Source: Candidatus Poribacteria bacterium
Lineage (GTDB): Bacteria; Poribacteria; WGA-4E; JAJDTR01
Direction of reading: 5' to 3'
Length of the DNA stretch: 64,000 nt
Assembly (NCBI GenBank): GCA_965222225.1
Contig: CBDCTK010000002.1
Coordinates: forward strand, 4,384,001 to 4,448,000
Position 1 is the first letter of the stretch. Every line of letters starts with the position of its first letter. The notes under the pieces are model-generated. The model worked only from the letters and a program-made list of their open reading frames with translations, searched no databases and had not been told where the DNA came from. Below, piece after piece: positions 2,319 to 50,599 of the stretch. Position numbers and translations under genes: made by a program.

Positions 2319-2354
2319 AGGATCTCTATCGCAGCCGCTATCCGTTCGTTTGAT
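2319..2354 (+). repeat. 36-bp dispersed hairpin unit
   Basis: AGGATCTCTATCGCAGCCGCTATCCGTTCGTTTGAT. Confidence 0.85.
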
Positions 2355-2385
2355 CCCCGCTGGGGCTTTTAGAGGCTGGTGCGCA

Positions 2386-2421
2386 GGGATCTCTATCGCA
2401 GTCATTATTCATTCCTTTGAT
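2386..2421 (+). repeat. 36-bp dispersed hairpin unit inside a GGTGCGCA..CGCACCC palindrome
   Basis: GGGATCTCTATCGCAGTCATTATTCATTCCTTTGAT. The uninterrupted host palindrome is present in the MITE copy near 37130-37150. Confidence 0.85.
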
Positions 2422-2599
2422 CGCACCCTGCAAACTGTACTTTTCAAACAGGCGCTTAATCTCAATTTTCTCGAAATTGTTTAGGTTCTGTTGACAGATC
2501 ATCGTTACCTAGATGATTGAGGGAGGCATAAATTGGTTCGCTGATATAAACAAATTGGACTATGTGACCGCGAGTTGGTGTTAAGTCAGGGTGGGAAGA

Positions 2600-2635
2600 G
2601 GAATCTCTATCGCGCTCATTGCCCACTCAATTGAT
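2600..2635 (+). repeat. 36-bp dispersed hairpin unit followed by an extra right half
   Basis: GGAATCTCTATCGCGCTCATTGCCCACTCAATTGAT then CTTCATTCAGTCACTTGAC. Confidence 0.75.
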
Positions 2636-2662
2636 CTTCATTCAGTCACTTGACACTACGGA

Positions 2663-2687
2663 GTCGCGAGTGAAACTCGCTCCTACA
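2663..2687. repeat. GTAG-type REP-like palindrome
   Basis: GTCGCGAGTGAAACTCGCTCCTACA. Related copies occur near 12427, 15271, 19023, 49233 and 53863. Confidence 0.7.
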
Positions 2688-2744
2688 GGTGTTGGGTTTC
2701 ACTGTGTTTAACCCGACCTACGGGTTAGTTGTGGGCGGGGCAAG

Positions 2745-2780
2745 GGGATCTCTATCGCACTCGCTATCCGCTCGCTCGAT
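2745..2780 (+). repeat. 36-bp dispersed hairpin unit in the loop of a GGCGGGG..CCCCGCC REP-like palindrome
   Basis: GGGATCTCTATCGCACTCGCTATCCGCTCGCTCGAT. The same host context occurs at 18875. Confidence 0.85.
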
Positions 2781-2983
2781 CCCCGCCTACGGATTCGGTG
2801 TCGCACGGCTTTCCGTTCAGTCCAGTCGTTGTATTTTTGTACAAGTCGAGCTAAGAATCTGTAACCGTGGACTATTGAGTACGTAAGTTTCATAGTCAGA
2901 TTTCGCACCCTCGTTAATGGGATTGGGGTTGTCGGATTCGAAATCGGCAACTGCAATTTTTTCTTTTCGCTGCAAAAAAACTG

Positions 2984-3012
2984 TTGACACACCACGGGAA
3001 TTTAACTATAAT
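2984..3012 (+). promoter_or_regulatory. sigma70-type promoter for the LamG array
   Basis: Perfect TTGACA-17 bp-TATAAT. Confidence 0.8.
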
Positions 3013-3211
3013 TAAGGTAATCTGGCAGTTATAAGTTGTCGGAGAAGGCAGCAATGATGTTTTTTGATGCCACAGTTGAGTGATAATCGTGTAAATTGAT
3101 AGATGGTTTTCTCCCAAAACGGTTGAAATGTCGTAGGGGGAAACTAAGAACCGGGTATATGGAACCCGGAATGATGTTTGCGGGCTAAAGCAATCCCGTA
3201 AATGTATACGG

Positions 3212-4108
3212 GTGAGATGCGCTTCGCCGCTTCCTCCCCTCAAATTAATAAACATGAAGGAGATTGACATGAATATGGGTTTTGTTAGATCAAGCCTATT
3301 ATGCCTAGGTGTGCTCTTGGCGTGCCTAGCCTTTACAAACATTAGCGACGCCGTCACAATGGACGATGTCCTTGCTGTCTGGACTTTCGACGAAAATGCT
3401 GGTGAAGAAGCCGCGGATAGCTCCGGCAACGGCAACAATGCCGAATTCAAATCAGGCGCTCCCCAATGGGTCGCCGGTAAATTCGGCAGCGCGTTGCAGT
3501 TTAACGGCGGCGACGCCGAAGACGGCGACTGGGCAGAAACGGGTGCCCCGGTCGTTGTGGATAGCGTTGACTTCACGATGGGTTGTTATGTGAATCCAGG
3601 CGACTCCCAGAAAACTTGGACGAACATTCTCTCAAGCCACGAAGAGCCGCCGCGCCGTGGTATTTCCTTTGAGATGATTGAAAACAATCTCAATTTGTTC
3701 GGTATTGCTGTTGGCGACGGTGAAAACTGGGCCGGGAATGGTACCGTTCAGCTTGACACCGGCGTGTGGAACCACATGGCTTTCGTTCGTACCGGCAATA
3801 TTGGCACATGGTATTGGAATGGCGTGCCCGAAGAATTCGAGATGCCGGGAGGCATGTTTGAATTGGCATCCGCCAATCCGGTTGTCGCCGCCACCAAACC
3901 CTTCCGCATTGGCAACTGGATACTCGGGGGCCGCGAATTCAACGGAGCCGTTGACGACGCTTTCATCTTTGGGAGACCGTTGAGCGCCGACGACATTGCC
4001 GATATCGCAGCGAACGGTATTGCTGCCGCACTTGCTGGCGGTGGAACTCTCGTTGATCCGAGGGACAAGGCATCGGTTACTTGGGGAGAGATTAAAGCCC
4101 GAAGGTAA
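3212..4108 (+). CDS. Secreted LamG (concanavalin A-like) domain protein
   Basis: Signal peptide, WTFDE..G, GKFGSALQF, WNHMAF, FNGAVDD and C-terminal VDPRDKASVTWGEIK. True start is probably ATG 3269 (AAGGAG RBS). Confidence 0.85.
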   Translation: MRCASPLPPLKLINMKEIDMNMGFVRSSLLCLGVLLACLAFTNISDAVTMDDVLAVWTFDENAGEEAADSSGNGNNAEFKSGAPQWVAGKFGSALQFNGGDAEDGDWAETGAPVVVDSVDFTMGCYVNPGDSQKTWTNILSSHEEPPRRGISFEMIENNLNLFGIAVGDGENWAGNGTVQLDTGVWNHMAFVRTGNIGTWYWNGVPEEFEMPGGMFELASANPVVAATKPFRIGNWILGGREFNGAVDDAFIFGRPLSADDIADIAANGIAAALAGGGTLVDPRDKASVTWGEIKARR

Positions 4109-4148
4109 CTTCAAGCAGATAACTCTCTTGGGTAATCAACATCCATCC

Positions 4149-4177
4149 GTGAGGGCACGAGTTCCATGTGCCCTCAC
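4149..4177. terminator. Intergenic hairpin between LamG genes
   Basis: GTGAGGGCAC...GTGCCCTCAC inverted repeat; no clear U tract. Confidence 0.4.
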
Positions 4178-4202
4178 ATCTCCTATAGGAAGATTTTAGG
4201 AA

Positions 4203-5009
4203 ATGATAAAAGTCACAAATCTAAGACTTTTCCTCTTCGTTCTCCTGCTTGGCTATGGTTGTTTTCTCTCGGCAAACATCGCTGTGGCGCAACTCGACTT
4301 TGATGGCGCCTTGGGGATTTGGCTGTTTGACGAGGGACGAGGGGATAACATTGAGGATTTCTCCGGCAACGACAATAACGGGGCAGTTGCGCAAGGCAAC
4401 CCCAATTGGGTGGATGGGAAGTTCGGCATGGCATTGGAGTTTGAACAGAATAGCTGGGTGACAATGGATACTCCTGTCGTGACAGTCGAAAAGATGGTTG
4501 ATTTCAGCATGGGGTGTTGGGCGAACCCCGAGAACAAACAAAAGACGTGGACAAATATTCTGTCCAGCCACCAAGAGCCGCCGCGCCGGGGTATTTCGTT
4601 TGAAATGATTAACAACGACCTCAATGTGTTCGGGATTGCTATTGGCGACGGAATAAATTGGGCGGGGGCAGGAAAAGTCCAACTAAAAACCGGTGCTTGG
4701 AATCACTTGGCGTTCGTCCGCACAGGCCGAAACGGAACATGGTACTTGAACGGAAAAATCCAAGGTAAATTCGGCTTGGCTTCGGATGATCCCGTTGTCG
4801 CTGCAACATCCGACTTTCGAATTGGCAATTGGGTGCTCGGGACTAGGGAGTTTAACGGCAAGGTTGACGAATCGTTTGTTTTTAGCCGTGCGTTAAGTGC
4901 CGATGAAATTGACATCATCGCCAAGAAGGGCATTGAGAACGCACAAGCCGTTTCCCCCAAAGACAAAGCGACTACGACTTGGGGAAAAATAAAATCCTGG
5001 CATCAATAA
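4203..5009 (+). CDS. Secreted LamG domain protein
   Basis: Close paralogue of 3212-4108 (shared QKTWTNILSSH.EPPRRGISFEMI); C-terminal VSPKDKATTTWGKIK. Confidence 0.88.
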   Translation: MIKVTNLRLFLFVLLLGYGCFLSANIAVAQLDFDGALGIWLFDEGRGDNIEDFSGNDNNGAVAQGNPNWVDGKFGMALEFEQNSWVTMDTPVVTVEKMVDFSMGCWANPENKQKTWTNILSSHQEPPRRGISFEMINNDLNVFGIAIGDGINWAGAGKVQLKTGAWNHLAFVRTGRNGTWYLNGKIQGKFGLASDDPVVAATSDFRIGNWVLGTREFNGKVDESFVFSRALSADEIDIIAKKGIENAQAVSPKDKATTTWGKIKSWHQ

Positions 5010-5120
5010 CCTAACTAACGCCCTGAGGAGTTTGTATTGAGTTCCTTTCGGGTTGCATAACCCAGTGGGCCGTAGGACGTGGCCCCTTAAACATTACATC
5101 AACAGCAAAGGAGGTCTCTG

Positions 5121-5267
5121 TCGGGATGATTCATGTGTTACGTCTGTTCCGTTGAACTTCCAGTTGGTGCGTGTTGAGCTCACGGAAGAAGCATATTCCT
5201 GACATTATAAACGTCAGTCAACTTAGGATGTGTTCACCTATTTTTGAATCTTCCCGGCAAAAAACTC
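5121..5267 (+). repeat. Conserved upstream region repeated before three LamG genes (also 6201-6340 and 7260-7398)
   Basis: Shared TCGGGATgaTTcATGTGTTACGTCTGTTC.GTT...CTCAC.GA.GAAGC...ACATTAT...CTATTT.TGAATC.TCCC. Confidence 0.8.
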
Positions 5268-6104
5268 ATGAAGATAATAATTGCTAAAGTAACGCTTTTC
5301 GCCATCAGTTTTGTATTCGTAGGTTTATTATTCACGAGCGCCGCCCATTCACAGCCTTTTCTGAGAAAAGCCGTGGCAATCTGGCTGTTTGATGAAGACG
5401 GGGGCAAGAAAGTCAACGATTTTGCCCGCAATAACCACGATGGCGAGTTTGAGGGCAAACCTGATTGGGTGCCGGGTAAATTCGGGTCGGCATTAGAGTT
5501 CAGCGGCGCGGACGAAAACCAGTGGGTAGACATTAACCGTCCGGTGGTCGTAGACACCGTTGATTTCAGCATCGGATGCTGGCTGTTACCAGGCGCCCCG
5601 CAGCACTGGCACCAGAATGTACTCGCCGGTCGGGACGCAGACGGGTCAGATACGGGCATTTCCCTTGCGCAGTACGAAAACGCGGTCAATAGCTATCGAA
5701 TTGTTATCGGAGGCGTGTTCAATTGGCAGGGGTTGGGCAATCCGAGACACGCTGCCAGAATAAATCAGGATGAATGGACGCATCTGGTTTTCGTGCGTGA
5801 AGGTAGGAACGGGATATGGTATAAAAACGGCGAACCCGATCGTCCGAAACGCGGCGATTTCTATATTGATATAGGATCAGTGAAACCAGCGAATCCTTCT
5901 GAGGCAAACTTCCGCATAGGAGCCGCTGTATTTGATGAAGCACGGCGCTACAGAGGCATTATTGACGAGGCGTTCGTGTTTGAAAGAGCGCTGAGTCAGG
6001 AAGAAGTTCAACGGGTCATGAACGAGGGATTTCAGGAAGCGCAAAACGTCGATTCCAAGGGCAAGACCGCGACGGTCTGGGGACAGATAAAGTCGCGGCA
6101 TTAG
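5268..6104 (+). CDS. Secreted LamG domain protein
   Basis: Signal peptide MKIIIAKVTLF...AHS, WLFDE, GKFG, WTHLVF; C-terminal VDSKGKTATVWGQIK. The ORF track starts it at 5244. Confidence 0.88.
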   Translation: MKIIIAKVTLFAISFVFVGLLFTSAAHSQPFLRKAVAIWLFDEDGGKKVNDFARNNHDGEFEGKPDWVPGKFGSALEFSGADENQWVDINRPVVVDTVDFSIGCWLLPGAPQHWHQNVLAGRDADGSDTGISLAQYENAVNSYRIVIGGVFNWQGLGNPRHAARINQDEWTHLVFVREGRNGIWYKNGEPDRPKRGDFYIDIGSVKPANPSEANFRIGAAVFDEARRYRGIIDEAFVFERALSQEEVQRVMNEGFQEAQNVDSKGKTATVWGQIKSRH

Positions 6105-6340
6105 CCAATTTTCTAGTTCCCAAACCTGCTGTTAAAGATTCTTAGGAATCTGAAGTCGACACAAACGATCAACGTGCCACGGGAGACTTGCCGCAGGAGA
6201 TCGGGATGATTCATGTGTTACGTCTGTTCTGTTAATCTTCAGGTTGGCACGCGCCGATCCTCACTGAGGAAGCGTGCCCTAACATTATAGGCTTCCATAA
6301 AAGTACCCGGCTATTTCTGAATCGTCCCGGAAAACAACTT

Positions 6341-7177
6341 ATGAACATGATTATTGCTAGATTCACACTTTTCGCTATCAGTTCTTTATTCGTAAGCTTA
6401 ACCTTAACGGATGTCGCTCATTCCCAGCCTTTTTTGAAAAATGCGGTGGCAATCTGGCTTTTCGACGAAGGCAGGGGCAAAGAAGTTACCGATTTTGCCC
6501 GCAATGACCACGACGGGGAGTTCGCTGGAAAACCCGAATGGGTTCCTGCCAAATTTGGGACAGGTTTGAAATTCCTCGGCGCAGACCAAAATACGTGGGT
6601 AGACATTGAACGTCCGGTCGTCGTGAACTCGGTTGATTTGAGTATCGGATGCTGGATGCTTCCAAGCAACCCGCAAGAGCGGTTCCAAAATGTACTTTCC
6701 GGTCGAGACGGAGAGATATCGGACGCCGGAATCGCCCTTCTGCAATACGAAAATACCACCAATAATTATCGGATTGCTATTGGAGGCGTGTTCAATTGGC
6801 AGGGGTTGGGAAATCCCAGGCATACTGCCAAGGTAGTTAAAGATGAATGGACGCATCTGGTTTTCGTGCGCGAAGGTAGGAACGGGATATGGTATATAAA
6901 CGGCGAACCCGATCGCCCGAAACGCGGGAACTTTCATATTGATACAGGTTCCAATAGACCTGCGAAACCTACCGATACGAATTTCCGCATAGGAGCCGCC
7001 GCATTTGATGAAAACCGGCGCTACCGAGGCGTTCTTGACGAGGCGTTTATATTTGAAAGAGCGCTGAGTCAAGAGGAGGTTCAACTCATCATGAACGAAG
7101 GATTCCTAGAAGCGCAAAATGTGGACGCCAAGGGCAAAGCCGCAACTGTCTGGGGCAGAATAAAATCGTCGCGTTAG
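6341..7177 (+). CDS. Secreted LamG domain protein
   Basis: Tandem paralogue of 5268-6104; C-terminal VDAKGKAATVWGRIK. Confidence 0.88.
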   Translation: MNMIIARFTLFAISSLFVSLTLTDVAHSQPFLKNAVAIWLFDEGRGKEVTDFARNDHDGEFAGKPEWVPAKFGTGLKFLGADQNTWVDIERPVVVNSVDLSIGCWMLPSNPQERFQNVLSGRDGEISDAGIALLQYENTTNNYRIAIGGVFNWQGLGNPRHTAKVVKDEWTHLVFVREGRNGIWYINGEPDRPKRGNFHIDTGSNRPAKPTDTNFRIGAAAFDENRRYRGVLDEAFIFERALSQEEVQLIMNEGFLEAQNVDAKGKAATVWGRIKSSR

Positions 7178-7725
7178 GCAGATGTTTCCGTGCTCAAGTC
7201 TGCGGTTAAGAATCCTCGAAATCTGAAGTCGACATTAATTATTAACTGGTAACAGGAAATCGGGATAGTTTATGTGTTACGTCTGTTCCGTTGACCTATC
7301 AGTTGATATGTCTTGCCTCACGGAAGAAGCGTATCTTGACATTATTGGGTTTCCGTGGAAGCGCCCACCTATTTCTGAATCTTCCCCTCAAAAAATTCAT
7401 GAAGACTATATTGCTAAGCGCCCGCTTAAATAATCGGTAGTAATGTTATTGGGACTTAGTAGTTAACTGCTTTTTGGTCGATTTGCTTGCTTTTCTCTTC
7501 TTAATGTACAATCATTTTAGACAGTGTTCGGAATCTTGATTCACACTAAAATACATCTCTATAAGAGAGAAATGGAGGCATATCATGTTGACCAAGCGTT
7601 TGTACATGCTCGCGGGAGCATTGCGGGTTATCTGCGGGATTTTAATTTCCAACACTATGGGATTTTCAGCACACCATGATGTTGTCGTTGACAGAATATA
7701 CCGATAGCCAAACAATTCATGTGGC

Positions 7726-8580
7726 TCAGGTGAAGCATTCATCAAAAAATCTTATGAAAATCTCATCATCTTTTCTGCGATTATATTTCCAGCAAGACTC
7801 CATGATATACAGTGGCAGCCACTTCTTGCTGTAGTGATGATGCGTTCCGTAGAATGACCTCTTGACACAAGCCCAAAACGACTCGATGGTGTTGGTGTGA
7901 GTTACGCCGTCCTCAGAAACATATCTCTCTTGGTGATGGATAACATGTCTTTCGATATCTTCGTCCAGACTATTGTAAGAGCGAAATTCATCAGTCATAA
8001 GAATAGACTCATCGGGTGAGACATTGCTAAGGATGAATTCTCTGATATTTTCACCAGATAGAACCTTCATGAATTTAGCAACCACCCGACCGCCTCTCTC
8101 GACTACGCCGATGACGGGAGATTTATTTGTGCCTCTACCTCTCTTAGATTTTGCTCTGGGTTTGCCGCCGACATAGGTTTCGTCCGCTTCAACTATCCCT
8201 TTCAGCAATTCATCACTATCACTCATTTTCTCACGGAGGCGCATTGCCATATACCAAGCGGACTTTTGATTCATGTCCAAGTCACGAGCAAGCTGACAAC
8301 TCGATATGCTTTTCTTGGCATTGGAAAGAATTGAGATAGCCAAAAACCATTTCTGGAGAGGTATCTTGGTACCATGGAAGATGGTTCCTGCTGTAGCCGA
8401 AAAGCTAGATTCACAATCGTAGCAATTCCAACCAGTAGTAATGTCGTTTTTGTTCTTGCGTCCAACTTTTTCACTGCCACAGTGGATACAGCAAACACCG
8501 TCCTTCCAACGTTTTTCCTCTATAAATCTGAGACAAGATTCTTGATTTGGAAACTCTTTCATAAGATTCAAAATGTCCAT
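7726..8580 (-). CDS. IS1595-family (ISXO2-like) DDE transposase
   Basis: N-terminal zinc ribbon (CIHCGS...CYDC), GTIFHGTKIPL, VEADETYVGG, MTDE, HTNTIESFW. Confidence 0.92.
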   Translation of the reverse strand: MDILNLMKEFPNQESCLRFIEEKRWKDGVCCIHCGSEKVGRKNKNDITTGWNCYDCESSFSATAGTIFHGTKIPLQKWFLAISILSNAKKSISSCQLARDLDMNQKSAWYMAMRLREKMSDSDELLKGIVEADETYVGGKPRAKSKRGRGTNKSPVIGVVERGGRVVAKFMKVLSGENIREFILSNVSPDESILMTDEFRSYNSLDEDIERHVIHHQERYVSEDGVTHTNTIESFWACVKRSFYGTHHHYSKKWLPLYIMESCWKYNRRKDDEIFIRFFDECFT

Positions 8581-8764
8581 AGCAAACTCCTACGAGAAGA
8601 ATAGTCACTATGGACATCTACGTGTGACGAAAAGATTTACGACAGGGTACCAAGTTTTATGTTTGTCGTCAGTCTAAAAGCTACAAGCTACTAATTCCGA
8701 TGTTATTACCGGTGGTTTGAGGGTGGGCGTTTTTATGTTTTTTCAGTCGCCTCCGATTTACCTA

Positions 8765-8863
8765 GAAGATATCTATCGCATTGGGATCTCAATCACATTC
8801 CTTGTTCGGTCATGTGATTCATTCGCACGCTTAATTGCAGGGGTCACTATCCATTCCTTTGAT
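8765..8863 (+). repeat. Decayed nested cluster of 36-bp units
   Basis: GAAGATATCTATCGCATT[GGGATCTCAATCACATTCCTTGTTCGGTCATGTGAT]... followed by TCACTATCCATTCCTTTGAT. Confidence 0.65.
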
Positions 8864-12229: not shown

Positions 12230-12405
12230 GGAATCTCTATCAGGATTTTCTATGGGAACTCTAGCGCGTGGGAACTACTATCGCACTCCCTATTCGGCCG
12301 TTCGATCCTATCCGGTCAGTTGCTCCTTCGTTAACCACTCAGTCGATCGCACCTTTGTCAGTCGCTTGATTTATTCGCTCAGTCGATCTTATTCGGTCAC
12401 TTGAT
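12230..12405 (+). repeat. Multiply nested cluster of 36-bp units
   Basis: Four left halves in a row (GGAATCTCTAT, GGATTTTCTAT, GGGAACTCTAG, GGGAACTACTATCGC) followed by about six right halves, nearly all ending in YGAT. Confidence 0.75.
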
Positions 12406-12631
12406 TCCACCCTACAAGTATTATTGTCGGCAATCGGAATTCCCTCCTACAAGCGACACCCGTGGGAGCCATCTCCCGCAGAGGACGCGCAGTGAGTGGC
12501 GCTATTGCAAACCGAACTGCGTAACTCCTTTAGGGGAGAATCAATTTTTTCCTTCCATTATCGCGCGGAATGCGATAGAATCTATTTCTAAATTATATCC
12601 GAGAATCAGAGTCTGCACAAAGAGTCCTACA

Positions 12632-13834: not shown

Positions 13835-13872
13835 GGGAACTCTATCACGCTCCGTTTTCAGTCGATTTCGAT
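13835..13872 (+). repeat. Degenerate 36-bp unit overlapping the stop codon of the oxidoreductase gene
   Basis: GGGAACTCTATCACGCTCCGTTTTCAGTCGATTTCGAT. Confidence 0.5.
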
Positions 13873-14892
13873 TCGATCCCCCTCTGACAAGAGCCCAGCC
13901 TCATACACTTTCATGACCTCAAGCGCGAATTCCAAGGAGCCCTTTTCAGCAGGTGTCGAAGCGAGAACACAGTCGCAAAAATACCGCATCTCGTTATAGA
14001 AACCTTGCTTGAACAGCGCTTTATTTTCTAGGGTGGCAACACAATTTTGCGCCTCCCAGACGATGGCGCCGCTGTCGAAACCCTCCGGCGCGTAGGTTGT
14101 CGTCCGTCCAAGGTCTGGGATGATGCCCCGTTGAAGGGTCACGCTCAAATTGCTATCAATGACAACATGGCAGCTATTTCCGAAGAAACTGTAGTTTTCT
14201 AGGGGCTGTGAGTCAGCCAGGTGGAAGTTACCGATGGCGCCGCCGGAAAACTCCAGTACGCACACACCTCCGGAGGAGTTTCCACGGTGAACGGTCACCG
14301 CGGACACTTTGCCACCAACAGCGAGAAGCAGGGAAAGAGGATGGCAACCATTTTGCAACCAGTTGGTGTGTTGAAACTCTCGGAGAATTTGTACCCCATT
14401 TTCGGGTAGGGTCATGGGATAAACTGCCAAAAGGCTTAATAGCGGCGCATAGGCTTTGGTCGAGAAGACCTCAATGACCTTTTCAGTAGATGGCATGAAG
14501 GCTTTTTTGAATCCAACAACAGCGATGTTGTCTTTGCGGCAGCGAATTATCTCCTCGACCTCTGAAACGCTCAAGCCGGGAGGTTTTTCAAGCCAGACAT
14601 CCAGACCTGCGTCAAACGCGTCGCACGTCAAATTCAAGAATGTTTGAGGCGGTGTGCACAGAAAGACGGCATCCAAATTCTCATTGGCGTACATTTTCCT
14701 AGCATCGGCGTAATATCCCGATGCGCCGTATTGTGAAGCGGTCAATTTTGCCCGCCGCAAATCGATATCGCACACCGCTACAAGTGACACGGGCAGGAAG
14801 GTCATCGTCGGTAGGATATTGCGGTAGGCGTGCGAACCTACTCCGACGAGACCGACGTTTAGTTTCTTTTCGAATTCTCGTTGCTCATTCAT
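13858..14892 (-). CDS. Gfo/Idh/MocA family oxidoreductase
   Basis: VGLVGVGSHA Rossmann motif, VAVCD, LDAVFLCTP, WLEKP. Confidence 0.9.
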   Translation of the reverse strand: MNEQREFEKKLNVGLVGVGSHAYRNILPTMTFLPVSLVAVCDIDLRRAKLTASQYGASGYYADARKMYANENLDAVFLCTPPQTFLNLTCDAFDAGLDVWLEKPPGLSVSEVEEIIRCRKDNIAVVGFKKAFMPSTEKVIEVFSTKAYAPLLSLLAVYPMTLPENGVQILREFQHTNWLQNGCHPLSLLLAVGGKVSAVTVHRGNSSGGVCVLEFSGGAIGNFHLADSQPLENYSFFGNSCHVVIDSNLSVTLQRGIIPDLGRTTTYAPEGFDSGAIVWEAQNCVATLENKALFKQGFYNEMRYFCDCVLASTPAEKGSLEFALEVMKVYEAGLLSEGDRIEID

Positions 14893-18698: not shown

Positions 18699-18874
18699 TG
18701 CGTGTGGACAACGCTTTCAGTTTGGGGCGATTTCTTGCGTTCAAGAAAGGCGCAGGAGATTTTAACCATTCGGTCTTTTTGGTAGACCATTGGAAAAGAC
18801 GCTAGCGGTTTTCGGTATCATGCAGATGACGTGTTGGGTTTCACTTGAATTTTGGTGTGGAACGACGGGGCAAG

Positions 18875-18910
18875 GAGATCTCTATCGCGGTCGTTATTCA
18901 CTCCCTTGAT
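18875..18910 (+). repeat. 36-bp dispersed hairpin unit in a REP-like palindrome
   Basis: GAGATCTCTATCGCGGTCGTTATTCACTCCCTTGAT between CGGGGCAAG and CCCCGCCTAC. Confidence 0.85.
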
Positions 18911-19148
18911 CCCCGCCTACGGGATTGGTATTGCGCGGCTTTCAGTTCAACCCAACCGTTTTACGTATGTACAAAGTCAAGCTTACAGAGTTCGCTATTT
19001 GTAGAAAACAGACATTCCTATGGTCGTGAATCGGAGTTCGCTCCTACAGGGAGTTACGCCAATTGAAATCGCATCTTCGATTTGACGATCCGCGAACCGA
19101 ACTGTGTGAGTCCCATATGTAAGATTTTCTGTTGGAGTGGCTATAAAT

Positions 19149-30277: not shown

Positions 30278-30313
30278 AAGATCTCTATCGCGCTCGCTAT
30301 CCACTCGTTTGAT
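30278..30313 (+). repeat. 36-bp dispersed hairpin unit
   Basis: AAGATCTCTATCGCGCTCGCTATCCACTCGTTTGAT between AACCTGTG and CCCCTCCGGGG. Confidence 0.85.
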
Positions 30314-30361
30314 CCCCTCCGGGGCTTATAAGGCTGGCGCAAAGGTTCATCCTGATTTGGG

Positions 30362-31345: not shown

Positions 31346-31347
31346 GG

Positions 31348-31383
31348 ATCAACTGAGTGAATAACGAAGGCGATAGAGATCCT
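31348..31383 (-). repeat. 36-bp dispersed hairpin unit (reverse), with further decayed left halves to about 31433
   Basis: ATCAACTGAGTGAATAACGAAGGCGATAGAGATCCT. Confidence 0.85.
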
Positions 31384-36028: not shown

Positions 36029-36134
36029 ATCAAAGGAATGAATAATGAACAGGATTTACTATCGCCTTGGGATCTCTATCGCGGTCGTTATTCACTCCCC
36101 TGATCTATCCGCTCAGTTGATCGATAAAGATCCT
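36029..36134. repeat. Three-level nested 36-bp units inside a GTAGGGTGGG..GCCCACC REP
   Basis: Outer reverse unit 36029-36134, middle forward unit 36051-36121, inner intact unit 36069-36104. An intact host REP lies at 44172-44192. Confidence 0.85.
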
Positions 36135-36977: not shown

Positions 36978-37058
36978 TGTCTGAATCGCGGATTAAGGGG
37001 ATTACGCGGATTAGGGATCTCTATCGCACTCATTATCCATTCGCTTGATCGGATTAAA
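36978..37058 (+). repeat. (CGCGGATTA)n-type repeat carrying a 36-bp unit at 37014-37049
   Basis: Near-identical direct copy at about 41094-41173 and a related host near 43424-43460. Confidence 0.8.
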
Positions 37059-37104: not shown

Positions 37105-37307
37105 GAACCTGTTTGAAAAGTACAGTTTGTAGGGTGCGCACTGCGCACCAGCCTCTAAAAGCCCCAGAGGGGATCAGGCGAACGATCAACTGAGTGGATA
37201 ACGAAGGCGATAGAAGATCCCATAGTGAGTGCGATAGAGATCCCACAAGTATATGACAACTCAAATGTCAAAAAGTGGATTTACCACCTAATTATTCAAG
37301 CAAGTTC
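37105..37307. mobile_element. MITE (inverted homologue of 2227-2455) with a two-level nested 36-bp unit at 37173-37244
   Basis: GAACCTGTTTGAA...TTCAAGCAAGTTC ends; internal sequence matches the 2227 copy in reverse complement. Confidence 0.75.
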
Positions 37308-41099: not shown

Positions 41100-41129
41100 A
41101 TCACGGATTACACGGATTACGCGGATTAG

Positions 41130-41165
41130 GGGATCTCTATCGCACTCATTATCCATTCGCTTGAC
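41130..41165 (+). repeat. 36-bp dispersed hairpin unit
   Basis: GGGATCTCTATCGCACTCATTATCCATTCGCTTGAC, one base different from 37014-37049. Confidence 0.85.
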
Positions 41166-41251
41166 CGGATTAAACGCAAGGCACTCCGCAACCTGGATTC
41201 GATCCGTGAATCAGAAGATGCCCGATAATTTTCCATTGTGAAGAAAAGAGA

Positions 41252-43473: not shown

Positions 43474-43576
43474 ATCAACTGGGCGGATAGATCGAACGAG
43501 CGATTAGCGAGTGATCAACTGAGCGATTAATGAAGGCGATAGAGATCCCATAGAGATCTTAAGGCGATAATTCCCC
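43474..43576 (-). repeat. Three-level nested 36-bp units (reverse)
   Basis: Minus strand: GGGAATTATCGCCTT[AAGATCTCTAT[GGGATCTCTATCGCCTTCATTAATCGCTCAGTTGAT]CACTCGCTAATCGCTCGTTCGAT]CTATCCGCCCAGTTGAT. Confidence 0.8.
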
Positions 43577-44248
43577 CATAGCGCCTTCCGTTCGACAGTG
43601 TTTATCCCGCGCCCTTCCAAATCTGATTGTTGACAAAAAGGCATTATTTCGTCAAATTTCGTCAAGTTGTGTCGTGTTTTGTCACGTAACCTTCGTTAGA
43701 AGCATTCACTTGAATCCGAGTTTCTACTTCAAAACCCGCGATCTTTATCGCAAAATCTTTTCGAGTGCACACCGCCGCCAAGCGGCAGAATAAATCCACG
43801 GAGCGAATAGATTAGCCACTTGACCTATTCAATCGTTCGATCGGTCATTTTCCATACATACCGAGTCGTCTCGACATGTATCGCGGCGAAAACTCTCGGA
43901 ATGGAGATGGGTTCAATTTGGCAAATGTCAACACGCTCTAGTACCCTTGAACCGGCTAGGGGATCGATCCGGTTTCAGAGTGTTGTTCCGAGGTCCATGC
44001 ACTGCATACCGCCGAGAAACTAGTCCTGGAACGGGTTCTCCCTGTTTCCTGTGACGCTTCGTTTCTCGCGTCTACTCTGAAAACTCTGAAAATCACATGA
44101 CCGCAGCCGCGTTAGATGAAGTGTCAGATTGAGTAAACCGCGGACGAGCCCTCACATCAGGCACACTTGCAGTAGGGTGGGCACTGCCCACCATCAGCAA
44201 ACGCCCAATGGCTGCTCAAATTAACGACATCCCATAAAGGAAAAAAAC

Positions 44249-47200
44249 ATGACAGAAAACCCCTCACTATTCCCGTCCGGCATCCGGGACAACCGCGAGC
44301 GGGGGACGGTCGGCAAGTTCCTTGAATCGCAGATTGAGAACGGGTCGTCGCTTTCGGTTGTCTCGGCGTACTTTACAATCTACGCTTTCGAGGCGTTGAA
44401 ATCGTCCTTACTTGGAATCAGTGACCTTCGCTTTCTGTTCGGCGAACCCCGATTCATCAAAAAGCTTGACCCCGACAAAACGGAAAAGAAATCCTTCGTC
44501 ATAGATAGCGACGGTTTGCAGTTGGAGAACCAGCTCCAACTCAAGCGTGTGGCACGGGAATGCGCCGAGTGGATTCAGGAGAAGGTGGAGATTCGGTCAA
44601 TCCGTGAATCAAATATGCTGCACGGGAAGATGTACCATATCGCCAAGAACGGCGTGGAAAACGCCATCCTCGGCAGCTCGAATTTTACCGTTCGCGGCTT
44701 GGGATTGAGTGAGTCAGGCAGCAATATTGAACTGAATCTGAAGGTGGCGGACGACCGCGACCGGAGCGATCTGAAGTTGTGGTTTGATGAACTGTGGAAT
44801 GATAAGAAACGGGTCGAGGATGTTAAGGAGGAGGTGTTGTCCTACCTTAACCAACTCTATGAGAATTACGCGCCGGAGTTTGTCTACTACAAGACGCTCT
44901 TTCATATTTTTGAGCGATTCTTGAGCGATCAGGAGGGACGGGGATTGCTGGACGAACCGGCGCAACTGGTCGATACGCAGATTTGGAAAGCGCTCTATGA
45001 ATTTCAGAAGGATGGCGTGAAGGGGGCAATCAACAAAATCTTGACGCATAACGGGTGTATCATCGCGGACAGTGTGGGCTTGGGCAAAACGTACGAGGCA
45101 TTGGCGGTGATAAAATACTTTGAACTGCGTAACGACAACGTGCTGGTGCTGTGTCCGAAGAAGCTGCGTGAGAATTGGACGCTCTACCAAGCATACACGG
45201 GAAACAAACTCAATCCGTTCCCCAATGACCGATTCGGTTACACCGTGCTGTCGCATACCGACCTGAGCCGGGAGGGAGGCAAGTCGGGGGATATCGACCT
45301 TTCGTCGTTCAACTGGGCCAACTACGGTCTGGTGGTTATAGATGAGTCGCACAATTTCCGAAACAACACGCCTGGAAAAAAAGATCGGGACGGCAACCTG
45401 ATACGCTTGAGCCGCTACAAGCGGCTGATGGAGGACATTGTCAAGAGCGGGGTAAAGACCAAGATGCTGTTGCTGTCGGCGACGCCGGTGAACAACGACC
45501 TACGAGATTTGCGGAACCAACTCTATTTTCTTACAGAGGAACGCGACGACGCTTTCAAGGACTCACTCGGTGTCGCCAACCTGAGAGAGACTATCACAGC
45601 CGCCCAAACGGCGTTCAACAAGTGGGCGAAAGAGGACGGTGCGCGTAACAGTCAGAAGTTGCTGGAGGAACTGAGTACTGCCTTCTTCAAGTTGCTTGAC
45701 GGGTTGACGATTGCCCGTTCGCGGAAGCAGATTCAGAAGTATTATCCCAAGTCGCTGAGAGAACTTGGCGGCTTCCCGGAACGCAGTAAGCCAGTTTCGC
45801 TTTCTCCGCCTATTGATACACTCGGGGAGTTCATGTCTTACGACAAACTTAACGAGGAGATTTCCGAGTATCAACTCTCCTTGTACAATCCTACCAAATA
45901 TCTCCGACCCGAATACCAGTGCGAATATGACCTAGAGCCCGTCAGAAACTTTACGCAGAGCGACCGCGAGCACTTTCTAATCGGCATGATGAGGGTAAAC
46001 TTCCTCAAACGCTTGGAAAGCTCCGTTCGCTCCTTTAGGATTACGTTGAAGCGTACGCTTGATAAGATTGAGGAGTTGGAGGCGCGTATCCGACGGTTTC
46101 AGGAGTATCGCGCCGGAAATCCCGACCTGGATCCGGCGGAGATGGAGATTGACGCCGATGATGACGAAGAACTACAGGCGGCGTTCGAGGTGGGCAAGAG
46201 CCTAGTGTTCAAGATGGCGCACCTTGATGTTGAGCGGTGGTTAGAGGATTTGAAACAGGACAGGGAGCAACTTGAGGGGCCGTACCGCTCGGCAGAGAAA
46301 GTCAGCCCTGTCCGCGATGCCAAACTGGCGAAACTCAAGGAACTAATTGAGGCTAAGGTTAAGCACCCGACAATCACCAAGAATGGGAATCCCAATCGGA
46401 AGGTACTGGTGTTCACGGCTTTTGCGGATACCGCCGACTACCTCTACGGGGAGTTACATGAATGGGCACAGGCAGAATTGGGCATCCGCACCGGGATGGT
46501 GACGGGGGGCGCCATGCCCAACAGAACCACGCTTGGCAAGACCAACTTCATCGACATTCTCACCAATTTCTCGCCCATTGCAAAGAACCGCGCGCACGAC
46601 GATTCCATGCCCCAAGAAGCCGAGATTGACCTGCTCATCGGCACGGATTGTATCTCGGAAGGACAGAACCTGCAAGACTGCGATTACCTGATTAACTACG
46701 ACATTCATTGGAATCCGGTACGCATCATCCAGCGGTTCGGGCGGATTGACCGTATCGGGAGCGTCAATAAGAGCGTACACTTGGTAAACTTCTGGCCCAC
46801 TCCCGACTTAAACCGTTACATCAACCTGAAAAATCGGGTTGAAGCGCGGATGGCGTTGGTGGATGTCACGGCTACGCAGGGAGACAACTTGCTCGATCCG
46901 GACGCACTTCCCGACGTGATTGCGGGTGACCTCAAGTACCGCGACCAGCAACTCCTAAAACTTCAGGAGGAAATCCTTGACCTTGAAGAGTTTAACGAAA
47001 GCGTTGCCCTCAACGAGTTCACGCTGGACGATTTCCGCATGGAACTAATCAAGTATATTGAAAGTAACAGGAAGAAACTTGAAGAGGCACCCTTCGGACT
47101 TTACGCGGTTGTGCCGCCGCTTGCGGGAGATCCAATAATTCAACCCGGCGTCATCTTCTGCCTGCGACAGAAAACGGAATCGGAGGAGAACGAAAAGTTG

Positions 47201-47653
47201 AATCCTACCCAACCCTATTTCCTCGTCTATGTTCGGGAGGATGGCGTCGTGCGGTTTACCTTTGCGCAGCCGAAGCAGATTCTTGAGATGTACCGGCAAC
47301 TGTGTGCGACGAAAACTAGCCCGTATGACGAGTTGTGTGCGTTGTTCGACGAGCATACGGAGGACGGCGGCGACATGTCGCAATACGACAAACTACTCCG
47401 GGAAGCCGTGAGGTCCATTTCTTATACGTACGAGAAACGCGCCTTCAGCAGTCTGCGATCCGGTCGCGGTGGGGTTTTGCCACTCGAGTCAGAGCAGGTT
47501 GGCGACACGACGGACTTTGAGTTGGTGACGTGGTTGGTGATTAAGGACGGATCGTCTCCCACAAAGCTGAATGAGCTTCTGGATCAAGTGACAGAATACA
47601 AGATTCATGGTGAAGTAGACACCGGATCTCCGGTGGGGCGTGAAGAATGGTAA
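44249..47653 (+). CDS. PLD-nuclease plus SNF2-type helicase (R-M-associated) with a MazE-like C-terminal tail
   Basis: LHGKMY...GSSNFT (PLD), IADSVGLGKT, DESH, LLSATP, SEGQNLQ, QRFGRIDRIG; tail LNELLDQVTEYKIHGEVDTGSPVGREEW. Confidence 0.9.
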   Translation: MTENPSLFPSGIRDNRERGTVGKFLESQIENGSSLSVVSAYFTIYAFEALKSSLLGISDLRFLFGEPRFIKKLDPDKTEKKSFVIDSDGLQLENQLQLKRVARECAEWIQEKVEIRSIRESNMLHGKMYHIAKNGVENAILGSSNFTVRGLGLSESGSNIELNLKVADDRDRSDLKLWFDELWNDKKRVEDVKEEVLSYLNQLYENYAPEFVYYKTLFHIFERFLSDQEGRGLLDEPAQLVDTQIWKALYEFQKDGVKGAINKILTHNGCIIADSVGLGKTYEALAVIKYFELRNDNVLVLCPKKLRENWTLYQAYTGNKLNPFPNDRFGYTVLSHTDLSREGGKSGDIDLSSFNWANYGLVVIDESHNFRNNTPGKKDRDGNLIRLSRYKRLMEDIVKSGVKTKMLLLSATPVNNDLRDLRNQLYFLTEERDDAFKDSLGVANLRETITAAQTAFNKWAKEDGARNSQKLLEELSTAFFKLLDGLTIARSRKQIQKYYPKSLRELGGFPERSKPVSLSPPIDTLGEFMSYDKLNEEISEYQLSLYNPTKYLRPEYQCEYDLEPVRNFTQSDREHFLIGMMRVNFLKRLESSVRSFRITLKRTLDKIEELEARIRRFQEYRAGNPDLDPAEMEIDADDDEELQAAFEVGKSLVFKMAHLDVERWLEDLKQDREQLEGPYRSAEKVSPVRDAKLAKLKELIEAKVKHPTITKNGNPNRKVLVFTAFADTADYLYGELHEWAQAELGIRTGMVTGGAMPNRTTLGKTNFIDILTNFSPIAKNRAHDDSMPQEAEIDLLIGTDCISEGQNLQDCDYLINYDIHWNPVRIIQRFGRIDRIGSVNKSVHLVNFWPTPDLNRYINLKNRVEARMALVDVTATQGDNLLDPDALPDVIAGDLKYRDQQLLKLQEEILDLEEFNESVALNEFTLDDFRMELIKYIESNRKKLEEAPFGLYAVVPPLAGDPIIQPGVIFCLRQKTESEENEKLNPTQPYFLVYVREDGVVRFTFAQPKQILEMYRQLCATKTSPYDELCALFDEHTEDGGDMSQYDKLLREAVRSISYTYEKRAFSSLRSGRGGVLPLESEQVGDTTDFELVTWLVIKDGSSPTKLNELLDQVTEYKIHGEVDTGSPVGREEW

Positions 47654-48006
47654 GACTGACCAACTACGTTCCACGACGCGGTGATGCGGTGTGGGTTGAC
47701 TTTAATCCTCAAGCTGGGCATGAGCAAGCGGGTCGTCGTCCTGCCGTAGTTCTTTCACCAGAGTCTTATAACGGAACTGTAGGTTTAGCAATTTTGTGCC
47801 CAATTACCAACAAAGTGAAGGGGTATCCCTTTGAGGTGGCTATCCCTCCCGGACTGGAGGTAACAGGCGTAATTCTTGCGGATCAACTCAAGAGCGCAGA
47901 TTGGCAAGTAAGAAATTCCGAGTTGATTTGTTCCTTGCCCATGAACACAGTGGACACGGTTTTGCAGAAAGTCCAAACGCTCTTGGGAAAAGATGATAAA
48001 CCATGA
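47647..48006 (+). CDS. mazF: MazF/PemK endoribonuclease toxin
   Basis: YVPRRGDAVWVDFNPQAGHEQAGRRPAVVLSP..YN...CPIT..KGYPFEV..GVILADQLKS.DW. Confidence 0.95.
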   Translation: MVRLTNYVPRRGDAVWVDFNPQAGHEQAGRRPAVVLSPESYNGTVGLAILCPITNKVKGYPFEVAIPPGLEVTGVILADQLKSADWQVRNSELICSLPMNTVDTVLQKVQTLLGKDDKP

Positions 48007-48177
48007 TTGAATCCAAGTGGAACACTTGTCAATTCACGATGGTTTTTTGTCCTTTAAAACCAAACAAATCAGCAACTCAACATATCTTGGACAGATTGCA
48101 TGGGTGGTGATTAACCAGCGGTGCAGTGAGCGAAAGGGTGTACTGAACTTGGTGCTTTTTGATGGAGAGAATCTCGT

Positions 48178-49188
48178 ATGGCTCTTAAACGAAATGACAG
48201 ACTGAAATGGAATAGCCGATCGATATTGGAAGGTAACGGGCAGATAGGCGATCTTAGGCAGGAGATACCTCAATTTGCGGAAGCTCCGTTCAGCGTAGAA
48301 GACAGAGGGGAGAATAAATATCTAAGACTCATAGTAAGGGAACCTCTCAAGGAAGGTCAAGGATTCCTTTTCCCAAGCAACAACCAAGAGGAGTTGCAGA
48401 TTCCCGTTGCCACCGTCTCAAAACGGTACAAGCTAGTTCAACATCGTCATATAGTAATGTCATTAGAAATGGCGCTGAAAAGAGTTGGTCTGAACCCAGA
48501 ACGTCTTGAAGTCGGATTAACCCTGACAGAGTATGGCGAATGCATGCAGATTAGCTTCTTTATGCCCAACGATTCTCCGTACGCCTTTAATCTCGGCAAT
48601 GAAGACCATGTTTTACAAGTGAATGCATTGAATTCTGTGGATAAAACGACGAAACTGGAGATTAACCTAAGGTGGTATAGTCTTAATTCCCAAACCGGAA
48701 TGTTGGCGCGTCGGGATGCGAGATTGAAAAAAATTCACCTGAAATCGTCGAAATCACTTGAATCTGTCATTAAAGGATTCTTAGAAGAGCAACTTGCTCA
48801 AGCATCAGAGGACATACAACGATTCAGAGAGTGGTATCAAATCAAGGTTTCTTTCGAGCAGTTATCCCATGCGAAGCCTAGTCCAAGCCAAATTGAACAT
48901 TGGATAAAGCGATTCGTCGCTAGGAGATGGGGAGAACATTCAGCCAAAAGAGTGTACCGCATTGCAAGAGAAGGGATGGACCTCCCCAGTCCTCATGAAT
49001 CCCAATACACCAATCCAGTTCTTAGCTCTTTCGCTCCCGTGCGCAATGCCTACGATATCAGTCAAGTGTTAAGTTGGATTGCCAGCCAAGAAGGAACAAT
49101 ACAGAATCAACATGCCCGACGGATGGATATACCAGATTTGATGGAGGCCCTCATTAAAACACAAAAGCCGCTAACGCTGAGCGTGTAA
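48178..49188 (+). CDS. DUF932/DUF945-like protein (mobile-element associated)
   Basis: VATVSKRYKLVQH, TEYGECM, LNSVD motifs. Confidence 0.6.
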   Translation: MALKRNDRLKWNSRSILEGNGQIGDLRQEIPQFAEAPFSVEDRGENKYLRLIVREPLKEGQGFLFPSNNQEELQIPVATVSKRYKLVQHRHIVMSLEMALKRVGLNPERLEVGLTLTEYGECMQISFFMPNDSPYAFNLGNEDHVLQVNALNSVDKTTKLEINLRWYSLNSQTGMLARRDARLKKIHLKSSKSLESVIKGFLEEQLAQASEDIQRFREWYQIKVSFEQLSHAKPSPSQIEHWIKRFVARRWGEHSAKRVYRIAREGMDLPSPHESQYTNPVLSSFAPVRNAYDISQVLSWIASQEGTIQNQHARRMDIPDLMEALIKTQKPLTLSV

Positions 49189-49291
49189 TACCATTTCTCT
49201 AAAATGACAATGCATCAATGGCGTGAATTAAAGTCGCGATTCGGAGATCGCTCCTATTGGGACCGCTGGATTACCACGTATTTGATGTAAA

Positions 49292-50281
49292 TCAAAACTC
49301 CATTAGCGTTGCGTCGTTGTTGAGGTAGGCTTGGATCCATGGGCGTACTCGCTCGCGCATGCTACCGGCGTCATGTAGATGCAACCAAAGCGTCATGCCG
49401 CGGAGGAAGGCAAGTTTGAGATGAGCGGTCAGTGAATTTCGCTCGGATTTCGTGAGGGGACAGACCGCTTCGTAGGCATCAAGAAAAACGGATTTCTGGT
49501 GGGGCGCTAGGGGCGTGTTTTGGTAGACGGCGGGGAAAAAGACCAGGGCATACGCGAGATCGAAGGTGCGATTGGCGGGTCGTGCGGTGTCGAGATCCAA
49601 GATAGCTTTCACCTTTCCTTCGGCATGAAATTTCAGGTTCTGTGCGCGGTAATCGCCGTGGATAATCCAATCTCCCTCGTCCGGCACGGGAAGTTCCGCA
49701 GCTAATCTCTCCACTTCGGTCTTCCACTCAGCAATCTGACTCTCCGATACCGGATAGCCTGCGGTTTGCGAGGCAGCGGTTCGTATTCGCTCAAGCCGTA
49801 GGCGCAACAGGTTGATGACTTCGTCGTGCATTGGCACCCACTTGAAGTCAACTGAGGGCAGAAAGCCGCGCAATTCATCGTGAATTCGGCACAAGATGTC
49901 GCCCGCAGATTGCAGCGCTCCCGTAGGTTTCGCAGTGTCGTAATTGTACCCATCCACAAATTCGGAAATCGCGTAGATTTCACTTCCTTCATTCGTTAGT
50001 GTGTCGCTGTCACGGTTTCGGAGGAGGCGAGGGATGGGGAAACCCCGATCCCAAAGATAATCCTGTGCCGCATGGGTGAAGGCGATGCGAGGGCGGTGCG
50101 TAGATGGGTTGAGGTTAAGGTCAGACGCAGGCTTATAGCGTTTTAGAAACAATTTACCCCGATCCGTATTGAGTGCCATGGTGGAACTCATGGCGCCTGT
50201 GCCTACCGGGATAGCCGTGGCAACTTTCAGTCGGTAGTTCTGGTGGATACTTGCCTCTTCGTGAGGCAAAAGGGGTTCCAT
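49292..50281 (-). CDS. Phosphotransferase (APH / type II homoserine kinase-like)
   Basis: FLKRY, IIHGDYRAQNL, ILDLD. Confidence 0.85.
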   Translation of the reverse strand: MEPLLPHEEASIHQNYRLKVATAIPVGTGAMSSTMALNTDRGKLFLKRYKPASDLNLNPSTHRPRIAFTHAAQDYLWDRGFPIPRLLRNRDSDTLTNEGSEIYAISEFVDGYNYDTAKPTGALQSAGDILCRIHDELRGFLPSVDFKWVPMHDEVINLLRLRLERIRTAASQTAGYPVSESQIAEWKTEVERLAAELPVPDEGDWIIHGDYRAQNLKFHAEGKVKAILDLDTARPANRTFDLAYALVFFPAVYQNTPLAPHQKSVFLDAYEAVCPLTKSERNSLTAHLKLAFLRGMTLWLHLHDAGSMRERVRPWIQAYLNNDATLMEF

Positions 50282-50535
50282 TTGCTGGTGTGTTTACTTT
50301 AATTTCTTGTCCTCGACTAGGGTTGTTTCTCTTAGGATATTTTCAGTCGTGCCGAGTTCGTTGTCAAGTCTTATTCGGGATTATCTTCGATTTTATGATT
50401 GAAGATTTCATCCTACGAGGGTGTGGAGGGAAGAAACCGAGTTTTGAGGAAAAACTCGGTTTCAACCCGAGAAGGAAAATCGGTGATTTGATGATTTCAG
50501 ATTGTGCTATCTCGCGCTCGGAGTTTAGTTTCACT

Positions 50536-50599
50536 GGAATCTCTATCGCACAGGATTTTCTTTCGGAACTCTATCGCCCTCGCTATCCACTTGGTTGAT
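50536..50599 (+). repeat. Nested/decayed 36-bp units inside a REP ending CCTACA
   Basis: GGAATCTCTATCGCAC..GGATTTTCTTT..CGGAACTCTATCGCCCTCGCTATCCACTTGGTTGAT. Confidence 0.75.

Follow-up and report, generated by a model that had tools for sequence, protein, structure and literature searches.

The stretch of DNA analyzed here (the window; 64,000 nucleotides, bases 4,384,001-4,448,000 of the 5.64-Mb contig C2 in a Candidatus Poribacteria genome of 5.70 Mb in total and ~50% G+C) carries dispersed copies of a 36-mer repeat whose variable positions covary as an imperfect hairpin. The 36-mer is a real, strongly constrained, and probably mobile repeat, and the family is restricted to one Candidatus Poribacteria genus, g1. 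In the interpretation that we favor, and that we consider somewhat better than an even bet, the 36-mer is a non-autonomous single-strand DNA element resembling repetitive extragenic palindromes (REPs) and depends for its movement on a Y1 HUH transposase of the REP-associated tyrosine transposase (RAYT) type that acts in trans.

Copy number and distribution of the repeat

The head motif of the repeat, GGGATCTCTATCGC, matches the window 18 times with at most two mismatches, compared with a mean of 0.41 matches expected from dinucleotide shuffles, and none of 100 such shuffles reached the observed count. A covariance model trained on 12 copies of the 36-mer from the window returned 28 matches with E values up to 1, including 16 at E <0.01; the full-length matches number 13 and score 49-62 bits. 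The analysis recovered all of the approximately 16 loci named in the initial annotation of the window, among them the three in reverse orientation (31347-31383, 37184-37221, and 43513-43549). No Rfam family matched the window at the gathering score, and no description of the 36-mer was found in the searchable literature (supplements lay outside the search), where the motif text was met only in unrelated contexts. A literature search for Poribacteria combined with 'repetitive extragenic' yielded unrelated review material only. These results agree with the initial annotation, which had assigned the repeat to no described family.

Genome-wide, 987 heads with at most two mismatches were identified: 570 on one chromosomal strand, 413 on the other, and 4 on a 63-kb contig; the 983 chromosomal copies were used for the context counts given below. 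The unit is 36-37 nucleotides long, and each copy contains two GATC sites. The copies form 604 clusters, of which 362 are single-copy and 242 contain more than one copy. Neighboring copies no more than 300 bp apart have the same orientation in 272 cases, as against 43 inverted cases.

The distribution among genomes is uneven. With at most one mismatch, 420-968 heads per species are found in 10 species of genus g1, compared with 0-15 in 31 genomes from nine other genera of the order; the reversed pattern, which served as a control, gives 0-3. An exact-pattern scan of ~186,000 species genomes detected at least 96 stretches, and all 80 of the 80 loci among the matches listed belong to Candidatus Poribacteria metagenome-assembled genomes. 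A cyanobacterial origin, to which HIP1-like letters had pointed, was rejected on the strength of these matches.

Covariation of the stem positions

Covariation was analyzed in 548 full-length copies without gaps, which comprise 496 unique sequences; the remaining 439 of the 987 heads were dropped as truncated, interrupted by indels, or degenerate in their tails. The four pairs of positions with the highest mutual information are 19:27 (1.21 bits), 16:30 (0.99), 15:31 (0.64), and 20:26 (0.45), followed by the next pair with 0.19 bits; these are the same four pairs for which the initial annotation had claimed compensatory variation on the basis of the window. Watson-Crick combinations account for 94% of the copies at 19:27, 92% at 16:30, 84% at 20:26, and 66% at 15:31. 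The A:C and C:A combinations add a further 3%, 3%, 12%, and 29%, respectively, and G:T or T:G just 1-2% at each of the four pairs. Three or four pair types occur at each pair; for instance, 19:27 is GC in 229 copies, AT in 132, and CG in 104. In 92-96% of the copies, the fixed mismatches at 14:32, 17:29, 18:28, and 21:25 consist of C/T or T/C. Taken in this order, the C/T, T/C, C/T, and T/C mismatches become A.G, G.A, A.G, and G.A on the complement, exactly as had been suggested for the opposite strand.

All four pairs are formed in 469 of the 548 copies; 1000 shuffles of the 3' arms gave 74 such copies on average and never more than 102. The stems fall into 147 haplotypes, 75 of which are fully paired. 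Given this number of haplotypes and the large excess of paired copies over the shuffled arms, the covariation is not the product of a small number of amplified subfamilies; the signal holds when subfamilies are merged, a treatment under which the initial annotation had allowed that it might vanish.

Other species show identical pair types, as seen in 166 unique copies that come from 80 loci among the matches listed. In 114 distinct sequences from other species, 98.9% of cells are paired, compared with 83.3% after shuffling, and 123 cells are changed on both sides, compared with 21.5; the covariation score of this set is 0.566, compared with at most 0.10 for slid partners. This 114-sequence alignment was taken from the best 150 model matches and fitted by the model, and hence leans toward pairing, whereas the pattern-based counts are free of this bias. 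The mutual information between stem letters and flanks does not exceed 0.2 bits, with no guide-like covariation, and no covariation was seen between the two GATC ends (positions 1-40). A locus in another species (L060, 5833-5957) contains four hairpin-only units that lack head and tail and are spaced 34 nucleotides apart.

Folding strand

The wobble pairs are distributed asymmetrically between the two strands. In the 496 unique copies, the four pairs include 232 A:C or C:A combinations versus 23 G:T or T:G combinations; as A:C is read as G.T on the complement, wobble pairs favor the strand complementary to GGGATC by ~10:1. This asymmetry, together with the covariation across species, bears out the earlier claim of a strand-specific hairpin. 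Each GA step of the complement is preceded on its 5' side by C, G, or T, and hardly ever by A; pyrimidines occupy this position in ~68% of the copies, and T is likewise very rare at the partner position 3' of the opposite GA. The base rule around the GA steps is equal on both arms and is also observed in other species. It matches the 5'-pyrimidine-GA-purine-3' context that sheared tandem G.A pairs prefer, and G.A pairs are presumed to form at the fixed steps. Folding with RNA parameters produced the proposed hairpin in four of five complements (-2.5 to -8.7 kcal/mol) versus none of five GGGATC strands. We infer the pairing of the hairpin from its evolution and not from predicted stability.

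Genomic location and orientation

Among the chromosomal copies, 895 of 983 lie outside a crude map of open reading frames that covers 80% of the genome. The orientation of the copies is nearly independent of the direction of flanking genes; in co-directional spacers, the sense side has the folding strand in 332 cases out of 601. Orientation does follow local GC skew: for 542 single-orientation clusters, the counts are 157/91 versus 75/218 (Fisher p ~1e-18), the GGGATC form being on the G-rich strand in 375 clusters (157 + 218) and on the other strand in 166 (91 + 75). The tracking of GC skew by copy orientation points to a replication-linked, DNA-level process. The cumulative GC skew of contig C2 flips sign many times and displays no two-arm pattern; this implies either extensive rearrangement of the chromosome or a skew that does not simply reflect replication.

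Contigs from RNA libraries span positions 2456-2787 of the window and include two copies of the 36-mer; as assembled contigs, they are silent on transcription, strand, and ends. All four sequencing runs compared in this work consist of assembled contigs, and chimeric joints at repeats were disregarded.

Filled and empty insertion sites

The mobility proposed in the initial annotation is supported by filled and empty sites, both orthologous and paralogous. The REP located just downstream of a gene for a 157-residue Y1 protein, described in the next section, is interrupted by the 36-mer in genome G000, which is analyzed here, and in G001 and G005, and is intact in G002, G009, and G004. The spacer orthologous to that of the window copy at 18875 is empty in four of seven relatives and contains differently placed copies in the other three. 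Among nine relatives, the orthologous spacers vary in their length, in their occupancy, and in the orientation of the copies.

Paralogous sites reveal the same picture. One context with a GTAG-tagged REP (as at 2745) is found in the genome without the 36-mer in 9 paralogues and with it in at least 6. A family of miniature inverted-repeat transposable elements (MITEs) of ~150-380 bp, whose interior is composed of REP units and 36-mers, has 38 oriented genomic copies with a varying number of 36-mers. The REPs of these MITEs have four defined sites that are occupied in some copies and vacant in others, and the stem haplotypes of the inserted copies differ. Contigs of the sequencing runs X1 and X4 skip the MITE of the window, 238 bases between 2217 and 2456 being absent.

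The insertion sites share several characteristic features: (i) copies occupy the loop of other REPs or separate the tag of such a REP from its hairpin, and are also found inside one another, (ii) for 57 of 566 copies, compared with 12.9 expected, the flanks form a stem of at least 5 bp with the copy in its loop, and (iii) 216 of the 987 heads directly follow CTAT or CTGT, the core that the tag of the 36-mer has in common with the REP tag. The heads that are truncated break off after position 11, 17, or 23, and these ends precede C or a pyrimidine; a truncated head followed by a new head is common at spacings of 11, 16-17, 23, and 28 nucleotides. The right junction is always TTGAT and then C. 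A pattern search for inserts at the junction of the REP-A unit in other genera returned only spacers of REP doublets.

Candidate Y1 HUH transposases

Seven Y1 HUH loci were found in the genome, five of them by a Pfam Y1_Tnp search and two by protein searches. They span 2.56-5.00 Mb of C2, and none is present in the window at 4.384-4.448 Mb, which is consistent with the earlier proposal that the enzyme is encoded outside it. Genes of the TnpB and IS110 types were not found in the genome.

The Y1 gene for the 157-residue protein is located at 3,080,258-3,080,728 of C2 in G000 (L001/L006). Its product matches PF01797 with 84.4 bits, and its HUH and Tyr motifs align to the ISDra2 and IS608 TnpA structures. 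The genome contains one intact copy of the gene and one 47-residue fragment. In all 12 of 12 orthologous loci, which come from four genera (and include L007-L017), the gene is bracketed by inverted REPs with a GCCCC-NNN-GGGGC hairpin and a CCTGTCGC tag, and this REP co-occurs with the gene across genera with few exceptions each way. The REP tag, which reads CTGTCGC or, in the second unit, CTATCGC, matches the 36-mer at positions 8-14; in both repeats, it is located directly 5' of the hairpin. The initial annotation had suggested a search for copies flanking a HUH gene; in G000 the 36-mer is indeed present on both sides of the 157-residue gene, but the gene is bracketed by a different REP and the 36-mer is a secondary insertion.

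The 12 orthologous loci argue against the 36-mer as the primary bracket of the 157-residue gene, and no Y1 gene primarily bracketed by the 36-mer was found among the genome loci examined. Several other Y1 genes were rejected as specific partners. The L003-type gene (3.089 Mb) is broken by a stop codon and has a GTAG REP as a bracket; the L004-type gene (3.728 Mb) is patchy across genera and is bracketed by another GTAG REP; the L002-type gene (2.564 Mb) and the 3.836-Mb gene have no 36-mer copies nearby.

Proposed mechanism and alternative explanations

In the proposed mechanism, the working form of the 36-mer would be single-stranded and complementary to the GGGATC... reading; it would have a short 5' GATCAA, then the hairpin, and then the conserved unpaired 3' tag GCGATAGAGATCCC. 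In this hairpin, four freely variable Watson-Crick or G.T pairs would be placed between invariant G.A/A.G steps. The enzyme would recognize the tag and the shape of the hairpin, whose helix is irregular at set positions, and would not read the stem letters; reading of shape instead of letters would account for stem letters that drift yet stay complementary. A RAYT-type Y1 HUH transposase encoded elsewhere is predicted to cut and rejoin the single strand during replication, and the best candidate would be the 157-residue protein, since its REP shares the tag core CTRTCGC. New copies would insert at the sites where such enzymes act on other repeats: in REPs, either in the loop or where the tag meets the hairpin, and in the 36-mer, at the corresponding positions. 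Both the moving enzyme and the single-strand DNA intermediate are putative. TnpA-REP of E. coli is reported to require a stem mismatch and the tag and to cut a dinucleotide at a variable distance on either side of the hairpin, and the authors suggest that any 3'-OH end could finish strand transfer (PMC3479197). Cutting at a variable distance fits the variable left junctions and the multiple truncation points of the 36-mer.

Several observations weigh against this mechanism. The non-folding form occupies the G-rich strand, usually the lagging-strand template, in 69% of clusters; thus, the folding strand is mostly on the presumed leading-strand template, which is puzzling. This strand bias is opposite to that of IS608-type elements. 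The z-scores obtained with RNA parameters are -1.0 to +0.6 and non-significant, and DNA parameters give the hairpin as the best fold in one of five complements (0 to -3 kcal/mol); with folding energies this weak, a stable free hairpin is not predicted. Comparison of filled with empty sites reveals 1-3 replaced target bases and no clean insertion, and such replacements fit no simple cut-and-paste and no single rule. Many copies are MITE passengers or tandem head/tail units, which implies far fewer independent jumps than copies. The initial description of the 36-mer as a minimal structure-encoded unit thus holds for the hairpin and the mobility, but not for these many copies, which do not stand alone.

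Further objections concern the enzyme. The 157-residue gene is bracketed by its own, different REP, and its contact with the 36-mer is through secondary insertion. Orthologues with 65-82% identity exist in four other genera that lack the 36-mer, and in some g1 species the gene is split or carries stop codons and the 36-mer copies are still there. The protein scores 65.8 against IS200 (cut-off 55) and 30.6 against NCBIfam REP_Tyr_transpos (cut-off 80). In the E. coli REP, the GTAG tag is described as being 5' of the hairpin, whereas the tag of the 36-mer is 3' on the folding strand (PMC3479197).

Some of these observations could be accommodated if the 36-mer were mobile without a RAYT, as a very small repeat of the kind of the small dispersed repeats (SDRs) of heterocyst-forming cyanobacteria, moved, e.g., by an RNA intermediate or by template-switching repair at extruded hairpins. 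Insertion into the loops and feet of repeats and into the 36-mer itself with 1-3 target bases replaced, the lack of a Y1 gene bracketed primarily by the 36-mer, the presence of the candidate RAYT in genera without the 36-mer, and folding with RNA parameters in four of five folding-strand copies all speak for this explanation. We nevertheless consider it rather unlikely, as orientation ignores gene direction, the tag is common to the 36-mer and the RAYT-bracketing REP, and the search for reverse transcriptases returned a single weak frame (27.5 bits; 29.9 bits with in-frame neighbors versus a cut-off of 29.6). A useful host site, namely a protein-binding site, a carrier of GATC for methylation, or an RNA hairpin that stabilizes or ends transcripts, with spread being secondary, appears improbable: the occupancy of orthologous spacers is not conserved, the orientation to genes is near-random (as in the 601 co-directional spacers), and the nested and truncated copies and arrays resemble debris. 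The strictly intergenic location of the copies, their two GATC sites, and their persistence with equal constraints in all 10 species of the genus would suit a host function; the RNA-library contigs over 2456-2787 with two copies also suit it, but cannot reveal transcription or strand.

The stem haplotypes that rank first and second in frequency (51 and 34 copies) correspond to copies located in the MITE family, many tandem head units of 11, 13, and 17 nucleotides and tail units exist, and 242 of the 604 clusters contain more than one copy. From these observations it could be argued that the 36-mer has no mobility of its own and was amplified by hitch-hiking in MITEs and by local slippage or duplication, the covariation being inherited from a few founders. 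The diversity of the stems (147 haplotypes, 75 distinct ones fully paired) makes this history very improbable, as do the low mutual information between stem and flanks (at most 0.2 bits), the different haplotypes filling the same REP site, the 362 single-copy clusters, and the occurrence of copies in at least three unrelated REP contexts.

The RAYT-type mechanism can be extended to a more specific proposal, which is attractive but doubtful: the 36-mer may be a hyperparasite of the REP/RAYT system that borrows the Y1 transposases of several REP families and lands where these enzymes open their own repeats. By the same tentative proposal, two tandem G.A platforms, a G.A-closed loop, a fixed spacing, and a short tag, in place of the stem letters, would suffice to specify the element, which would then possibly be about the smallest mobile DNA known. 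If the hyperparasite proposal is true, the copying of REPs and of very small dispersed repeats becomes directly testable with an oligonucleotide and the 157-residue protein. The mode of REP copying is described as still unclear even in E. coli (PMC3479197). The family constitutes a natural experiment with hundreds of copies, free stem letters, and fixed geometry, in which the strand asymmetry names the working strand and the filled and empty sites name the targets. The intergenic DNA of this uncultured sponge-symbiont phylum consists of layers of small repeats inserted in each other, and such layers matter for genome assembly, for annotation, and for reading strain variation.

Comparison with known repeats and mobile elements

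The 36-mer shares with REPs a short length, a high copy number, an extragenic location, and a conserved imperfect palindrome. GTAG- and CGTC-tagged REPs are reported as a known REP class (PMC3733652), and the tag of the 36-mer, CTATCGC on the strand opposite to the folding one, departs from it in having ATAG on the folding strand. As described for REPs (REP/BIME of E. coli) and RAYTs, the 36-mer belongs to the range of 20-40 nucleotides, is extragenic, and exists in hundreds of copies, with an imperfect hairpin that has conserved mismatches and is located beside an unpaired tag (PMC3479197, PDB 4ER8). Further common features are the complementary stem changes, the G.T pairs in subfamilies, and a REP-bracketed single-copy Y1 gene in the same genome. 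Di Nocera et al. report REP families with alternative complementary stem residues and G.T pairs, and one family with a conserved unpaired G and A (PMC3733652); as far as that account goes, this kind of element is therefore already known. Thus, the claim of an unrecognized family stands for the 36-mer itself, of which no description was found in the searchable literature, but not for its category, as it behaves like a REP-type repeat. Differences from REPs are the alternation of two free pairs with two fixed G.A steps in the stem and the location of copies inside other REPs.

REPINs, which are formed by REP doublets, are likewise reported to be non-autonomous, linked to a RAYT, and replicating within the genome (PMC3116915), but the 36-mer is a single hairpin or a direct array and not an inverted doublet, as seen in the 43 inverted versus 272 same-orientation neighbors. 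The ends of IS200/IS605 elements and of their miniature derivatives are described as single-strand hairpins with irregular stems, with cuts at short nearby sites and no target duplication (PMC3479197), features that resemble those of the 36-mer. In contrast to these elements, it has one hairpin instead of two distinct ends and no internal transposase, and no TnpB was found in the genome. IS1397, cited in PMC3116915, reportedly inserts into the loops of REP hairpins; elements of this type are kilobase-long insertion sequences with their own DDE transposase.

The definition of MITEs includes terminal inverted repeats with a length of 15-30 bp and duplication of the target site; the ends of the 36-mer share GATC alone, and its filled sites, compared with empty ones, carry no duplication. 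In contrast to CRISPR repeats, 362 of the 604 clusters of the 36-mer are single-copy, and the arrays are head-to-tail and lack spacers. The SDRs of Nostoc and relatives, reportedly described by Elhai et al. in 2008, are said to be ~21-27 nucleotides long, to exist in hundreds of copies, to be present or absent in identical contexts and located inside other repeats, and to have an unknown mover. They differ from the 36-mer in phylum and sequence, and the latter has a covarying hairpin with G.A steps and the tag of a RAYT-associated REP.

Copies and neighboring features in the window

In the description below, the strand of a copy is that of the folding (G.A/G.T) strand, and bit scores are those of the covariance model. 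A host MITE of ~226 bp (2228-2453, plus strand) with the terminal inverted repeats AGCCTGTTTGAA and TTCAAACAGGC holds two full copies on the minus strand. The copy at 2319-2355 (51.7 bits) is located between the tag and the hairpin of a REP-A unit, and that at 2386-2422 (60.5 bits) in the loop of a GTAG-tagged REP with filled and empty paralogues. Two more full copies of the minus strand follow outside the MITE, at 2600-2636 (49.3 bits) and at 2745-2781 (58.5 bits); the latter occupies the loop of a GTAG-tagged REP with the flanks GGCGGGGCAAG and CCCCGCCTAC. Another GTAG-REP loop contains the full copy at 18875-18911 (minus; 59.8 bits). A second repeated module (GGGTTTCAC ... TTCAACCCAACC), found at 2690-2735 and 18830-18960, encloses the REP hosting the copies 2745 and 18875; the interior of the orthologous module differs in relatives.

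The other full copies on the minus strand are found at 30278-30314 (56.2 bits; tag/hairpin junction of a REP-A unit), 36069-36105 (58.8 bits; with a partial inverted copy of 13.1 bits at 36119-36134), 37014-37050 (61.8 bits), and 41130-41166 (58.5 bits). Heptamer-like short tandem repeats (GGATTAC/GCGGATTA) are located directly upstream of two of these copies, at 36990-37013 and 41105-41129. Full copies in reverse orientation, with the folding strand being plus, are present at 31347-31383 (60.8 bits) and at 43513-43549 (54.6 bits), the latter with tail-like units alongside. The nested pair at 37184-37244 (plus) consists of an outer copy that ends after position 23, in its own loop, and a subsequent full copy; the match at 37184-37221 scores 52.8 bits.

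The remaining loci, all on the minus strand, are composite or degenerate. A truncated head (50536-50557) precedes a full copy (50564-50600; 52.7 bits) at 50536-50600, and the cluster at 12230-12420 comprises two truncated heads, a full copy at 12270-12307 (33.2 bits), and tail-like units of ~17 nucleotides. The copy at 13835-13878 is degenerate with an indel (19.1 bits, E 0.0015), and another degenerate copy, at 8783-8819 (26.1 bits), adjoins the end of an insertion sequence. A 1.25-kb insertion sequence at 7451-8700, which encodes a 284-residue transposase and which we take to be IS1595-like from its zinc-ribbon N-terminus, has at least 28 genomic copies at 99-100% identity. Contigs of three of the four sequencing runs join 7442 to 8700 without this insertion sequence.

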